Shown here: in pieces, positions 5,118 through 10,031 of the stretch
Layout of the letters: every line of letters starts with the position of its first letter
Position numbering within the stretch: the first letter of the stretch is position 1
From: a virus
Lineage: Duplodnaviria > Caudoviricetes
DNA: 64,000 bases
Virus record (IMG/VR): IMGVR_UViG_3300049742_000009
Location: 1,927-65,926 of that record
Reading direction: 5' to 3' (one strand)
The notes under the pieces: generated by a model
Databases searched by the model: none
Seen by the model: the letters and a program-made list of their open reading frames with translations, nothing else
Told to the model about the DNA's origin: nothing
Translations under genes and position numbers: made by a program

Positions 5118-5989
5118 GCCTTGTTTCCTTGGAGCCGATACGCTGATCGGATCGTATCCCGAGTTTCTATCTCTGTCAACCCTGCCGTACGCGCCGCTTC
5201 GCCGAGAACTTCCATTGCCTCTTCCTGCGTGGCACCGTCAGAACACATCGAACGGGCAGCCCAGAGGAGGCAGTTGTTGCGGTTGCCCTCCTGGGCGTAG
5301 GCGACTGATTCTGCGAGTCCGCCATAGTTTACGGAGCCTCCCTTCTCGTATGGAGAGGCAGCCGGTTGCGATGGTCGCGCCCTTTCCTTGCACAGTTCCA
5401 CCAGCCAGTCAGGGGCGTCCAGTACGTCAACTCCCTTGGAGCGTCGCACATATGGCCCCTTGGTGGTTTCGCTTCCCTCGCCGAGCACATAACCGCCTCG
5501 TTCGCCGCCGTTGCAGCGGATGTCCAATACGCCTTTGACGATTGAAGCTTGAGACGCTTGAAGCCAGCTCGGCCACCGGAAGTAGTAGTGAAGTCCACCG
5601 GAGCCAGTGGAAACGCAATATGTGCTCTCCACCTCTGCCCAGTCTCCCCCGTATCGGTGACACACTTCATTGAATACGGACTCGCCGTCAACCAACGGAC
5701 CGAACGCCTCGTGCATGTAGGCGAGTTTGGTTTTGGATAGGGCGTACTGCGTCTTAGGTATGTCGCAATCCACAACCAGCAGTCCAGAGGGCTTACATGC
5801 AACTCCGACGTTGGCTTCCGGCCACTGATTCCACAGACGCAACACCACGTTGAGATCGTTCGTTGCAACGTCGCTCCACTTGATCGTATACGGCGGTGTG
5901 GTGGTGTGCGGTGTCTTGCCGAAGTCCTCGACGGGGAAGATGTGGAAGCCCTTTTGAACTGCCTTCACCGCGTCAGGTAGTAGCTTCAC
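5114..5989 (-). CDS. bifunctional DNA primase/polymerase (Prim-Pol)
   Basis: GFHIFPV...GKTP, W..WPEANVGVAC..SGLLVVDCD, TGSGGLHYYF, LDIR..GGYV; C-terminal EGNRNNCL helical domain. Confidence 0.9.
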   Translation of the reverse strand: MKLLPDAVKAVQKGFHIFPVEDFGKTPHTTTPPYTIKWSDVATNDLNVVLRLWNQWPEANVGVACKPSGLLVVDCDIPKTQYALSKTKLAYMHEAFGPLVDGESVFNEVCHRYGGDWAEVESTYCVSTGSGGLHYYFRWPSWLQASQASIVKGVLDIRCNGGERGGYVLGEGSETTKGPYVRRSKGVDVLDAPDWLVELCKERARPSQPAASPYEKGGSVNYGGLAESVAYAQEGNRNNCLLWAARSMCSDGATQEEAMEVLGEAARTAGLTEIETRDTIRSAYRLQGNKA

Positions 5990-6158
5990 GGGGCCTCCAC
6001 TTTACGTACCAGATGCGATGTGAACTGCGTTCATCGCAATGCCACTTGGAGTGGCCCGCGTGCCAGTACGGCCAGGTGCAGCGGACGGGGCGCCAGCCTT
6101 TCCAGCGCCACGACAGGCAGCGGGTTGACTTGCGGTACTTGTTCAGCCAGTACAACAT
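5973..6158 (-). CDS. Trp-rich small protein
   Basis: 61 aa with 9 Trp; ATG overlaps the upstream stop (TGATG). Confidence 0.5.
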   Translation of the reverse strand: MLYWLNKYRKSTRCLSWRWKGWRPVRCTWPYWHAGHSKWHCDERSSHRIWYVKWRPREATT

Positions 6159-6331
6159 CAGTAGTGGTCCTCGTCACCGCGCCTCCATCTCACGTGCAGT
6201 CGCCCGATGTCCAGGGCGAACGCCTTACCCATCTCCGCCTCATTGGTGGTGATGTAAAGATTCACCCCCGGCCAGAACTCGACGCCTCGACTCTGCGTGA
6301 AGTTCCACGTATAGACCAGCCTGTTTCTCAC
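6158..6331 (-). CDS. hypothetical protein (57 aa, not in ORF track)
   Basis: MRNRLVYTWNFTQSRGVEFWPGVNLYITTNEAEMGKAFALDIGRLHVRWRRGDEDHY; overlaps at both ends. Confidence 0.6.
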   Translation of the reverse strand: MRNRLVYTWNFTQSRGVEFWPGVNLYITTNEAEMGKAFALDIGRLHVRWRRGDEDHY

Positions 6332-6462
6332 CGGCGAGTCCTAAAGAAGTGGGGCAGCGACAGGAACGCTGCGATGAGTACGGAGATCATCCATGAGTTC
6401 CACGGCTCTACCTGCGGAGTGCCGTAGCAGAGCCAGACGATAAGCCAGATTACGAGTGCCAC
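6328..6462 (-). CDS. two-TM membrane microprotein (44 aa)
   Basis: MALVIWLIVWLCYGTPQVEPWNSWMISVLIAAFLSLPHFFRTRR; TAGTG and GTGA junctions. Confidence 0.6.
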   Translation of the reverse strand: MALVIWLIVWLCYGTPQVEPWNSWMISVLIAAFLSLPHFFRTRR

Positions 6463-6659
6463 TAGGACTCAACCCTCCACGTAAGATTGCCGATATCTTC
6501 CACCCGAGCCTGTATGCCGTACTTGCCCTCAAGGGCGAGTCCGTCCCTAGCCGTGTATACGATTAGTCCGTGTTCTTCGCTGCTGTCTATCTCGGTTAGC
6601 AGGTCGGCGAGCCGCTGTGCGTAGCCCATAGCTAGCTCGCGTTCTTCCTGGGGTGTCAC
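6462..6659 (-). CDS. hypothetical protein
   Basis: 65 aa ORF in the operon. Confidence 0.6.
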   Translation of the reverse strand: MTPQEERELAMGYAQRLADLLTEIDSSEEHGLIVYTARDGLALEGKYGIQARVEDIGNLTWRVES

Positions 6660-6662
6660 TCG

Positions 6663-7715
6663 TCAATGCCCCTTCACGTAAACCAAGTTGGACTTCTTGA
6701 GTCGGAGTGGAACTAGAATCAGCTCAGTCACTATGGCCTTGAAGTCGTAGTAGGCGTTGAACGCCTTAAGGATATAGAAGGATGGCCAGCAGCGAAGCAC
6801 TCGCCACACACTTAGCTTACGTTTACGGATCGCATAAGCCAAGCTAGGGCCGAAGAGAAGTACCTCACTAGAAGCCATCCATGCGGCCACTACTAGCGGG
6901 GAGCCACCGTCCGCCATCCACCACACGGGCAGTGCCACCATGAGCGGTGAAAGTAGTATCTCTACAAGGGAGATGGCCACCCATAGCGCGAGCATGGGCT
7001 TACGTCGGACCATGTTCCAGCCATGCTGTCGGACGTTCTGGAAGTAGCCGGTCTTCCAGCGGTTGAGCTGGGCGCACATGAAGTGGCGTGAGGTCGGCTC
7101 GGCGGCGTAAGCCACCGCGTCGGCGACGTACGCCGCGCCGTGTCCGGCTATCTGCTGAGACCAGGTGTAGTCGATGTCCTCGACCAGTGTACGGTCGGGG
7201 AACCCCCCGAACTCGCGCAGCGCGTCGAGCCGGAAGGCAGAGCAGCAGCCAGAGCATACCAGCGGCGCCCCGTAGTGGTCCTGGACGGGCCGGAACCAGT
7301 GGAAGCCAGAAAGGTACTCCATCTGCCGCGCCCGCTCCCACAGCGTGTCCTGAAACCGCGTGAGCACGCAACCGGCCGCGATGACCGTGCGGGGATCTGA
7401 GAACGGCCCCTTGATCAACTCCACGTAGTCAGGCGCCAGAACGGTGTCTGCATCGACCGGAAGTACCAGGTCCGTTGAGCAGTGGTCTAGCGCGAAGTTC
7501 TGCGCCTTGGCTTTGCTGCCCAGGTTGACCCCGGGACTGAGTACGGTCACACGCTCAAAGCCTCGGGCCACGTTCGCCGTGCCGTCTGTGGAGCCGTCGT
7601 CAACGACGATGATGGCTTCGGGTGGGGTGCTCTGCGTGACCAGGGCAGCTAGCGTTTCGCCTATCCCCTCAACTTCGTTGTAAGCGGGGATGATTACCGT
7701 AAGACTAGCTGTCAC
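6663..7715 (-). CDS. processive membrane glycosyltransferase family 2 (IcaA/PgaC/cellulose-synthase-like)
   Basis: IPAYNE, VVDDGSTD, VDAD, QMEY, LVEDID and QLNRW (QxxRW), followed by about three TM helices. Confidence 0.9.
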   Translation of the reverse strand: MTASLTVIIPAYNEVEGIGETLAALVTQSTPPEAIIVVDDGSTDGTANVARGFERVTVLSPGVNLGSKAKAQNFALDHCSTDLVLPVDADTVLAPDYVELIKGPFSDPRTVIAAGCVLTRFQDTLWERARQMEYLSGFHWFRPVQDHYGAPLVCSGCCSAFRLDALREFGGFPDRTLVEDIDYTWSQQIAGHGAAYVADAVAYAAEPTSRHFMCAQLNRWKTGYFQNVRQHGWNMVRRKPMLALWVAISLVEILLSPLMVALPVWWMADGGSPLVVAAWMASSEVLLFGPSLAYAIRKRKLSVWRVLRCWPSFYILKAFNAYYDFKAIVTELILVPLRLKKSNLVYVKGH

Positions 7716-7821
7716 GGTTGCGCCTTGCCTTGATCTTCACGAGGATGCCGGATACCAGTGCCAGCAGGGCAAGCACACCGTAGATGATGAACGAGAAACC
7801 GGTGTGTGCTAGCATATACAT
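7705..7821 (-). CDS. 38 aa peptide consisting of a LAXTG sortase-type sorting signal (not in ORF track)
   Basis: MYMLAHTGFSFIIYGVLALLALVSGILVKIKARRNRDS: LAHTG, about 20 hydrophobic residues, basic tail; overlaps the GT2 start. Confidence 0.7.
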   Translation of the reverse strand: MYMLAHTGFSFIIYGVLALLALVSGILVKIKARRNRDS

Positions 7822-7822
7822 T

Positions 7823-8245
7823 TTATAGGAGACTTTCTCTTAGATCGCGTGAGGCTTCATTGTGCCAACGTTCGATGCAATCAAGGCACTTGTTTTGTGA
7901 CATGTGAGTTACCTTGGCCTTGCATCCGTAGCACGCATGGGTGTCGTGCTGGCACTCTAGACAGTACAGGTAACGGCGCGCGTCTGCATCGGACTTGAGG
8001 CGGCCGAGGTCGTTCTTGAGTAGGATCATGGGCTGGTCGTGGCTAGGGCCACCTGACCGATCTCGGGCCATTCTCCCCTGGACTCGGACGATTTGTGCGG
8101 CAGGCTCTAGGTCGTCAACACTCTCTCCGGGGTTGGCGGTTGGATCGTACATGGGAAGCGTCTTGTAGACCCATGTGTCGTACTCAGCTTCCACGGCCAG
8201 AACGGCGGGGTTGACGTGGTGTGTGCAGCGCGTCCCCTCGCACAT
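7823..8245 (-). CDS. Cys/His-rich hypothetical protein
   Basis: 140 aa; CLECQHDTHACYGC...CLDC. Confidence 0.6.
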   Translation of the reverse strand: MCEGTRCTHHVNPAVLAVEAEYDTWVYKTLPMYDPTANPGESVDDLEPAAQIVRVQGRMARDRSGGPSHDQPMILLKNDLGRLKSDADARRYLYCLECQHDTHACYGCKAKVTHMSQNKCLDCIERWHNEASRDLRESLL

Positions 8246-8530
8246 CTACTCCCCCTCATCTTCCAAGTGCCATAGAGTGCTGAACACTTCACTCAGCTTG
8301 TCGGCATCGGCCCACTCGTCCCTGCCGCTGTAGTCGTACGGCAGGATCTTGCGGAGCTTGGCTATGAGTCCCCTGTCTAGGGTCCTGATACCAAGCGTGC
8401 AGTTGTGGGAACCCGACCAGCCGCAGGCGCAGTTGACTTGAACGTGTGTGAGTGCCACTAGAGTTTCCTTATGATCAGGTAGGACACTATGATGATGGCT
8501 ACCGCCAAGATGAAATCCTCTGCGAACCAC
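8246..8530 (-). CDS. hypothetical zinc-finger protein
   Basis: 94 aa; H...VNCACGWSGSHNC. Confidence 0.55.
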   Translation of the reverse strand: MVRRGFHLGGSHHHSVLPDHKETLVALTHVQVNCACGWSGSHNCTLGIRTLDRGLIAKLRKILPYDYSGRDEWADADKLSEVFSTLWHLEDEGE

Positions 8531-8752
8531 TTAGCCATCTTCACACTCACACATTGCGGGGAACACCTTGTTACCGGGGCACTGGCAGTCGGGTGGGCAT
8601 GCACCGCACCCGCAGTGGCAACCGATGGGATCTTCGTTACCTACAAGGTAGGCAGCTTCAAGGACGCGCGCGTATCGCCTGTCACAGTAGGCGCATTCGC
8701 CTTCCTTCTGGTGGGCGACCGTCAGGCGCCGCAGGTCAGTGGCGGCGCTCAT
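8531..8752 (-). CDS. metallothionein-like Cys-rich protein
   Basis: CAYC...GCHCGCGACPPDCQCPG...CECEDG; 10 Cys in 73 aa. Confidence 0.55.
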   Translation of the reverse strand: MSAATDLRRLTVAHQKEGECAYCDRRYARVLEAAYLVGNEDPIGCHCGCGACPPDCQCPGNKVFPAMCECEDG

Positions 8753-8954
8753 CCCTGCCCCCCTGGACGTAGCCGCGACCGTAACTCGCCTTGCCGTAGC
8801 CGTCGATGAGATCCAGCATCTTCGCGTACTGGATCTTGCCGATTACAGGAAGGACGTTCTCCTGTATGAACTCGTCAAGCTGGATCTCCAGTCCACTGCG
8901 GTCGGACTCTTCTACGATGCCCTCAGGCTTAGCCAAGTTACGGCCGCGACCCAT
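8736..8954 (-). CDS. hypothetical protein
   Basis: 72 aa; YGKASYGRGYVQG tail typical of small phage proteins. Confidence 0.6.
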   Translation of the reverse strand: MGRGRNLAKPEGIVEESDRSGLEIQLDEFIQENVLPVIGKIQYAKMLDLIDGYGKASYGRGYVQGGRDERRH

Positions 8955-8957
8955 GTT

Positions 8958-9116
8958 TTACTCCTCGCGATAGTTGAACTGGCAGCAGGGGGCCGCCATT
9001 ACGATATGGAGCGCCTGGTGTTCGGTAAACCCTTCGGCCACGAGTGAGGCGTACAGCTCGTGCATGAGCGCTGCCTGTTCCTGTAGCGTCTGCGCTTCCG
9101 GTGGTTCCCAAGTCAT
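8958..9116 (-). CDS. hypothetical protein (52 aa, not in ORF track)
   Basis: MTWEPPEAQTLQEQAALMHELYASLVAEGFTEHQALHIVMAAPCCQFNYREE. Confidence 0.65.
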   Translation of the reverse strand: MTWEPPEAQTLQEQAALMHELYASLVAEGFTEHQALHIVMAAPCCQFNYREE

Positions 9117-9164
9117 CTTAGCGTCTTCCTTGTCGGGTTTGTAGGGTTTGGGGTGTGGCGTGCG

Positions 9165-10031
9165 TCACTTAGCCCCGGCTACCTCGGCCCCGCAGGCTGC
9201 GTAACCAGCAACGTCAATCCAACTGTCTCGCTTGCCGGATGACCACATGAGCCGAGACAGCTTGAGAACGATCATGATGACAGCCACGTCGTGGTCGTCC
9301 AGGACTTCGCAGCCCGAGCCGTCGCGTCCTTCCTTGCCGAAGCCCAGCGAAGTAAGCGCCTGGGCGGCCCTGTTGAAATCCTTGCCAGGCGGGCCGTACT
9401 GGTTGTTGCGGTCGCCGCAGATCAACCGCTTGGCTTCGTCCAGAGTGGCCGCGCGCACGGAATCGGGCGGGAACGACTCGGCAGGCTTGATGGTCCCCGC
9501 GTCAGCGAACCCCTCGGCTATGCGCGTCTCTTGGAGTGTGTCGATGGGATCGTCGTTAAACACCTTGCGCCGCTTGAGGCGTTCCATGGCTTCGCGCAGG
9601 GCGGCTTCGCGCAGGGCGTCGGTGGTGGATACCTCCGGGTGCGCTTCGTTCTTGCCAGGGATGAGGCGGCAGTCGGTTTCCCAGTGTGGATCAAACACAC
9701 AGTTCAACTCGTACACAGGAAGGCCAAGTTCATGCGCTAGTGCAACCTCAAGGCAGGCCCCCGCCGAGTCGTACCAACCGTCCAGGACTGAGACCAGGCA
9801 GTCTGTACCGCTGGAGTACATGTACTTCGCAAGGCCCTGGATCTGATCCACGCTCTTGTCAATGTACGTCCAGCGGGGGCGAGTTGTATCCCCGTCGAAG
9901 TTCTCGGCAGGGTTTATGACTGAGTGCCTGGCGTCACGCAGCAGCTCAGCGGCGCTGTTGAACGCCTCGTAATTGTAGTTCGGATAGCCGGTCATCGGAC
10001 CGGCAAGATAGATACGCCTAGTCACTCTCAC
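9165..10031 (-). CDS. DUF4406 (nucleoside deoxyribosyltransferase-like) fused to DUF6378-like domain
   Basis: N-term IYLAGPMTG..NYNYEAF...VINPAEN...GW..S.GA.LE...A..LG; C-term LDEAKRLI.GDR..QYG...F...LKLSR...DSW.D.AGYAACG. Confidence 0.8.
   Translation of the reverse strand: MRVTRRIYLAGPMTGYPNYNYEAFNSAAELLRDARHSVINPAENFDGDTTRPRWTYIDKSVDQIQGLAKYMYSSGTDCLVSVLDGWYDSAGACLEVALAHELGLPVYELNCVFDPHWETDCRLIPGKNEAHPEVSTTDALREAALREAMERLKRRKVFNDDPIDTLQETRIAEGFADAGTIKPAESFPPDSVRAATLDEAKRLICGDRNNQYGPPGKDFNRAAQALTSLGFGKEGRDGSGCEVLDDHDVAVIMIVLKLSRLMWSSGKRDSWIDVAGYAACGAEVAGAK

Follow-up and report, generated by a model that had tools for sequence, protein, structure and literature searches.

Why would a phage genome encode what looks like a cell-wall sorting signal with nothing attached to it, directly ahead of a gene for a processive glycosyltransferase? 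The question is raised by a 38-aa ORF (7705..7821, minus strand, ending in a TAG stop codon) in the window analysed here, i.e. the whole stretch of 64,000 nucleotides, which represents nearly all of a 65.9-kb IMG/VR virus record and carries its genes on the minus strand. The ORF, which was defined by its translation, its homologues and profile searches, encodes MYMLAHTGFSFIIYGVLALLALVSGILVKIKARRNRDS, a product (hereafter the microprotein) that consists, from N- to C-terminus, of a tip, MYM-LAHTG (with LAHTG representing residues 4-8), a hydrophobic helix of ~20 residues (approximately F9-V28) and a basic tail, KIKARRNRDS. An earlier sequence-only reading of this DNA had listed MYM, LAHTG, a hydrophobic helix and KIKARRNR as the elements of this ORF, all of which are present, and had described the product as a sorting signal without a passenger, in agreement with the order of pentapeptide, helix and basic tail and with the presence of only three residues before the motif. 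LAXTG is the class E sortase motif of Streptomyces chaplins. Sorting signals of the TIGR01167 and PF00746 families, including the class E LAXTG signals of chaplins, likewise combine such a pentapeptide with a hydrophobic segment and a positively charged tail, within a length of about 30-35 residues; however, such signals form the C-terminal domain of a protein with a signal peptide and a passenger, whereas the microprotein constitutes an entire gene, has neither of these and is tied to a family-2 glycosyltransferase (GT2). Three roles had been put forward for it: an anchor or acceptor linking the glycan to peptidoglycan, an activating subunit of the IcaD/PgaD type, and a decoy for the host sortase.

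The microprotein gene overlaps the gene for the processive GT2 (P0002; 6663..7715, minus strand, 350 aa, GTG start, assigned through Pfam GT2 families) by 11 nt (7705..7715, minus strand), with the TAG of the former at 7707-7705 and the GTG of the latter at 7715-7713, in different frames. On its other side, the ATG of the microprotein gene is located 1 nt past the TAA of a gene encoding a 140-aa Cys-rich protein (7823..8245, minus strand), and no Shine-Dalgarno sequence is present ahead of the window copy. Because of this 1-nt gap to the upstream stop codon, the lack of a dedicated Shine-Dalgarno sequence and the 11-nt overlap with the GT2 gene, translation of the microprotein is probably coupled both to that of the upstream gene and to that of the GT2. 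The 140-aa gene represents operon context only and lies outside the conserved module, as relatives carry other genes upstream of the pair; its product returned zero Pfam matches and, towards the C-terminus, contains a number of Cys/His pairs (CLECQHDTHACYGC...CLDC). On the 3' side of the GT2 gene, the window contains a 65-aa ORF followed by a small hydrophobic ORF of 44 aa (6328-6462, minus strand), and a small hydrophobic ORF of 52 aa (L002:5048-5206) was observed immediately 3' of the GT2 gene of the related contig L002. A scan of positions 5800-9300 for promoters and terminators yielded no signal beyond chance, near-identical phage DNA was not found in INPHARED, and no tyrosine integrase gene was found in the phage.

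The deduced P0002 protein contains the motifs DDG, DAD, VED and QLNRW, with interface and membrane helices at its C-terminus. No membrane helix precedes the catalytic domain, and the protein begins six residues ahead of the sequence IIPAYNE. More than 1600 GT2 homologues were found. Nearly all family members start 4-7 residues before [IV]PA[YH]NE, and the GTG start at 7715 fits these N-termini. P0002 was aligned to positions 42-307 or 46-307 of the PgaC_IcaA profile and to positions 48-318 of the NodC profile; since both alignments begin there, the first ~45 profile positions are missing from P0002, a segment that approximates the length of the microprotein. P0002 scored below the equivalog cut-offs of both models (103.6 versus 422 bits for PgaC_IcaA, and 69.2 versus 550 bits for NodC), its resemblance to PgaC/IcaA and NodC being limited to the fold and to the motifs D,D,D,QxxRW.

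The shortness of the ORF, together with the absence of a Shine-Dalgarno sequence from the window copy, would be compatible with a chance ORF or with a frameshifted N-terminus of the GT2 rather than a separate gene, and this reading was weighed against the arrangement in related loci. The three nearest GT2 homologues (75, 70 and 66% identity) are encoded on phage-like metagenome contigs, and in each of these contigs a called gene of 36-38 aa is situated immediately upstream, overlapping the GT2 gene by 4 nt or 1 nt, which is consistent, as is the 11-nt overlap in the window, with the translational coupling to the GT2 that had been proposed. The products of these upstream genes include MYSTLASTGFSS... 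and MYGLAHTGFSA.... For a broader comparison, 80 loci were fetched from bacterial genomes, one from IMG/VR and 46 from metagenomes. A peptide profile search of the 118 loci that had at least 200 nt of flank identified, in 99 cases, a homologous ORF of 31-60 aa directly 5' of a gene belonging to this GT2 family. Conserved microORFs of the LxxTG-TM-basic type, for which a search next to GT2 genes had been suggested, were thus found, albeit with a motif that depends on the branch of the family. A Shine-Dalgarno core was present ahead of 18 of 21 and 17 of 18 microprotein copies checked, and profile searches with the microprotein reached E-values down to 6e-13. In IMG/VR, a scan with the single protein returned nothing, and a scan with the profile returned one contig. 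Separate stop codons, varied overlaps and individual ribosome-binding sites in ~100 loci, along with these E-values, leave practically no probability for a chance ORF or a frameshift of the GT2, which was ruled out by the comparative data. Conservation in ~100 actinobacterial and phage loci indicates that the 38-aa ORF is a real gene.

Clustering of the flanking ORFs showed that no further neighbour of the pair is conserved, and neither a sortase gene nor a gene for polysaccharide modification was found nearby; the unit consists of two genes only, encoding the microprotein and the GT2. The pair occurs on phage-like contigs as well as in plain chromosomal settings in many bacteria. In Streptomyces cavernae, for example, it is located among metabolic genes. 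A further case is that of L097:2823-4053 and L020: on a metagenome contig, an LPYTG-type pair is located between recR and a DHH-family gene, which is followed by cysS, and the GT2 most closely related to that of this pair is encoded on a contig of 2.2 kb from a Candidatus Saccharibacteria bin. This distribution bears on the suggestion that the microprotein is a phage decoy that saturates the host sortase and thereby strips sortase-anchored receptors from the cell. The encoding of a sorting-signal look-alike by a phage would suit such a role, but ~80 bacterial genomes carry the pair, its surroundings can be ordinary chromosomal ones (the metabolic genes of S. cavernae and the recR-cysS region of L097), and the microprotein is tied to a GT2 for which a decoy has no need. 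The decoy reading is consequently considered very improbable.

The microprotein family was shown to split into a Thr-type branch and a sister branch, which are clearly homologous (hhalign, 97.8%). The Thr-type branch comprises the window, all phage-like contigs and scattered bacteria (Streptomyces spinosisporus, S. cavernae, Asanoa, Sporichthyaceae and Nocardioidaceae), and its N-terminus reads M-Y-x(1-2)-L-[P/A]-x-T-G, as in the nearest phage-like contigs L002 (MYSTLASTGFS...), L004 (MYGLAHTGFS...) and L085 (MYGLAHTGVS...). Two Thr-type alignments (18 and 40 sequences) showed no variation in the L, T and G of the motif or in a Tyr located within the helix. When 1.84 billion cluster representatives were searched with the profile, 95 matches were obtained, ~85 of which represent L[PA]xTG microproteins; x is occupied by 13 different residues and position 2 is restricted to P or A, the two exceptions to the motif being LPNMG and LPFGG. 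Across ~100 distinct sequences of the Thr branch, L-[P/A]-x-T-G is almost invariant, and the underlying codons vary synonymously, with every Thr and Gly codon (four each) and five of the Leu codons in use. Judging from these comparisons, selection on the sortase-tag tip is strong in the branch to which the phage belongs.

The sister branch encompasses 78 loci, mostly from Nonomuraea, Actinoallomurus, Actinomadura and Streptomyces, and its N-termini (MHGG-LPx[IV]G, MPGG-PPTLG or MHG[GA]-[MF]PG[LI]G) contain no cleavable Thr. The motif that the sequence-only reading had singled out is therefore conserved among homologues in the phage's branch only, where L, T and G are essentially invariant; as for its form, LAxTG is present in the window peptide, whereas the family at large exhibits LAxTG or LPxTG according to lineage. 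The division between Thr and non-Thr types corresponds to one branch of the GT2 tree. Midpoint rooting of this tree places the Thr type at the base, whereas a very distant outgroup, attached through very long branches, makes the Thr type derived.

Loci in which a helix is joined to the GT2 itself are informative with regard to the role of the microprotein. In three database proteins (P0062, P0083 and P0086), the microprotein is fused in frame at the N-terminus of the GT2. In addition, members of a metagenome GT2 subclade that has no microORF (nine loci checked: L106, L108, L112, L114, L115, L117, L121, L124 and L127) possess instead an in-frame, two-helix N-terminal extension, with the sequence ...GTVLLLAVS.PLP.LNVKLLGLI.IVAGLVKAR.... 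The AlphaFold model of the fusion protein P0062 had a mean pLDDT of 88, with a value of ~65 (moderate confidence) for the N-terminal helix, residues 9-34. Its best structural match was the hyaluronan synthase of a Chlorella virus (Z 28.9, rmsd 2.9 over 350 residues), with residues 2-379 of the model aligned to residues 41-452 of the chain. PcManGT and BcsA also aligned with the model from the N-terminal helix onwards, whereas soluble GT2s aligned only from residue 47. In this predicted structure, the fused peptide helix is positionally equivalent to the pre-catalytic membrane helix of solved synthases. Since the fused helix must run from the outside of the cell to the cytoplasmic catalytic domain, the motif would be positioned on the sortase side of the membrane.

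It is therefore likely, in our assessment, that the microprotein serves as a dedicated, single-pass small subunit of the adjacent GT2 that is supplied in trans. The microprotein would be a membrane protein with one helix, its N-terminus outside and its basic C-terminus inside, and the adjacent GT2 would be a small synthase of the hyaluronan-synthase, PgaC or NodC type, to which the microprotein would contribute in trans the pre-catalytic membrane helix that the GT2 is missing. The overlapping frames would ensure that both proteins are made together, forming a self-contained two-gene cassette for glycan synthesis that is carried by actinomycete phages and many Actinomycetota. The two proteins would bind each other, the microprotein may be needed for a stable or active channel, and the phage may use the glycan to alter the surface of its host. 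When the microprotein profile was compared with helix 1 of NodC and PgaC, the best score was 0.8 bits, which is not significant, at matching positions of a Paraburkholderia NodC. Furthermore, ~10 loci (including L029, L090, L094, L105, L119, L072, L053 and L125) lack both the microORF and a fused helix, so that the GT2 may on occasion function by itself.

The proposed subunit invites comparison with two kinds of known system. The pre-catalytic helix of the Chlorella virus and Xenopus hyaluronan synthases (8snc and 8smp), PcManGT (6yv7), BcsA (4p00), NodC and PgaC occupies the same place with the same orientation; in those synthases, however, the helix is encoded in cis and has no sortase-type tip, whereas here it is a separate 38-aa product that bears one. 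The small membrane subunits of exopolysaccharide synthases, among them IcaD and PgaD, which accompany the PNAG synthases IcaA and PgaC, are not well understood. Like IcaD and PgaD, the microprotein is a small membrane protein that is co-encoded and translationally coupled with a synthase of the PgaC/IcaA type, and it is probably needed for a working enzyme. PgaD of an E. coli plasmid locus is encoded downstream of pgaC and has ~170 aa, in contrast to the microprotein, which is encoded upstream, has one helix and measures 31-60 aa. No Pfam or NCBIfam match linked the microprotein to the IcaD or PgaD families. Among the three roles originally put forward, that of an IcaD/PgaD-like activating subunit is consequently the best supported as far as function is concerned, the peptide standing in for the missing helix of the GT2; membership of the IcaD/PgaD families did not hold.

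The strict conservation of the tip in the Thr branch raises the additional question of whether the microprotein is processed by a sortase. The window peptide scored just below the cut-offs of the sorting-signal models (14.6 versus 15.9 bits for TIGR01167, with alignment to positions 2-33 of 34, and 16.9 versus 20 bits for PF00746), and its relative P0123 passed TIGR01167 with 23.6 bits. At E<=0.1, TIGR01167 matched 33 of 40 Thr-type members, as compared with two of 47 in the sister clade. When the Thr branch was compared with 16 genuine C-terminal sorting signals encoded in the same host genomes, hhalign gave a probability of 95.8% (E 7e-9, 39 columns), versus 7% for the sister branch. The C-terminal sorting signal of P0243, a protein of 635 aa, is a real one (LAFTGISTPIYISVGLVL...RRSR) and matches the microprotein profile with 35.6 bits, a hint that the sequence resemblance between microproteins and true sorting signals extends past the pentapeptide. 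A word-based search, which constitutes weak evidence on this point, found no longer proteins that contain the microprotein.

Such findings can be accommodated if the microprotein is a sortase substrate without a passenger, the tip of the phage branch being cut by a class E sortase of the host between Thr7 and Gly8. We place the probability of this reading, which is compatible with a subunit role, slightly short of an even chance. If cut, a head of 7-9 residues (seven in the window peptide) would be transferred to lipid II or a wall precursor and the synthase would retain the Gly-headed helix; the effect of cleavage would be to mature the synthase, to gate it or to localise it where the wall is assembled. 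In favour of such processing are the contrasts between the two branches in TIGR01167 and hhalign comparisons, and the invariance of L, T and G in the Thr branch against a background of 13 alternative residues at x and of codons that vary synonymously. In four of four genomes, a small sample, the residue at position 2 of the motif is the one (Ala or Pro) that predominates among the sorting signals of the host itself, and the alternation of P and A fits the specificity of SrtE1 of S. coelicolor, which accepts both LAETG and LPETG, cutting between T and G and favouring Ala two-fold (PMC5148588). Each of the five host genomes checked carries 5-9 sortase genes, the motif is predicted to face outward, and the JGI and NCBI pipelines automatically name some members of the family LPXTG cell wall anchor.

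Against cleavage, the pair in the 78 loci of the sister clade works without a cleavable Thr, and the midpoint and outgroup roots disagree as to which state is ancestral. The microprotein has no signal peptide and just 3-5 residues ahead of the motif, and its helix begins straight after the Gly, leaving little spacer. Moreover, no sortase is encoded in the cassette, in the phage or in neighbouring genes. To our knowledge, such a sortase substrate has no experimental precedent. Combining processing with the subunit role, the microprotein would represent a cargo-less sorting signal that has turned into a synthase subunit, with the sortase-clipped C-peptide as the working part that ties glycan synthesis to wall anchoring; we advance this combined proposal tentatively and consider it somewhat less probable than cleavage as such.

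A related arrangement was encountered in exosortase cassettes. The NCBIfam model NF058583, 'LAXTG motif-containing small protein', was searched for in 301 Actinomycetes genomes (including an unpublished one, G267, on which no individual statement relies), and no match exceeded its 65-bit cut-off. The nearest proteins (~40 bits) have 52-60 aa and the form MY...LA[FMV]TG-helix-RRR. In two loci (L158:3-2868 and L159:3-1695), a small LAxTG protein is followed by a 201-aa exosortase resembling XrtR/XrtP and by an XrtP-type GT2, the latter possessing its own N-terminal helix. Exosortase cassettes thus also pair a small MY...LAxTG-helix-RRR protein with a PgaC-like GT2, and hhalign indicated a resemblance between the small proteins of these cassettes and the phage-branch microproteins (93%, E 2.5e-7); in contrast to the latter, the former carry an extra Gly/Ala-rich head of 12-15 residues. 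The microprotein itself scored at best 16.8 bits against NF058583 (cut-off 65), and P0002 scored 25 versus 520 bits against the XrtP-associated GT2 model NF053846, and belongs to another GT2 subfamily. The exosortase signature TIGR04178 was not found in the phage or in four host genomes.

That other small sorting-signal proteins, such as those of L158 and L159, are linked to GT2 synthases and resemble the phage-branch microproteins lends some weight to the first of the roles proposed earlier, in which a sortase joins the peptide, or a glycan primed on the peptide, to peptidoglycan and so fixes the GT2 product covalently to the wall. However, the piece that would be wall-bound after cleavage is the seven-residue head only, and this head has no evident tie to a polymer synthesised in the cytoplasm and exported via the channel. 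Furthermore, no ligase, LCP or deacetylase gene accompanies the pair. A covalent wall anchor is accordingly regarded as unlikely, and the small subunit supplied in trans is retained as the preferred reading.

The pair had not been recognised as a described system, and this assessment stands: no Pfam or NCBIfam model covers the microprotein family, and no description of a microprotein-GT2 pair was found in the literature. It represents an undescribed two-gene module of actinomycete phages and bacteria, probably a minimal processive glycan synthase. With respect to annotation, microprotein genes are mostly uncalled or automatically named as LPXTG cell wall anchors, which hides their partnership with the GT2. 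As a synthase the module is very simple, and its subunit would replace a helix that relatives carry in cis. If a sortase does cut the microprotein, we would know of no smaller natural substrate of such an enzyme, and the microprotein would establish a direct link between the sorting of wall proteins and glycan synthesis. The reading of the microprotein as a clipped subunit, if true, would, together with the exosortase cassettes, point to a general and undescribed coupling of sorting transpeptidases with processive glycan synthases, in this case as a module that is mobile on actinomycete phages. For the phages themselves, the pair would provide a compact cassette for remodelling of the host surface.
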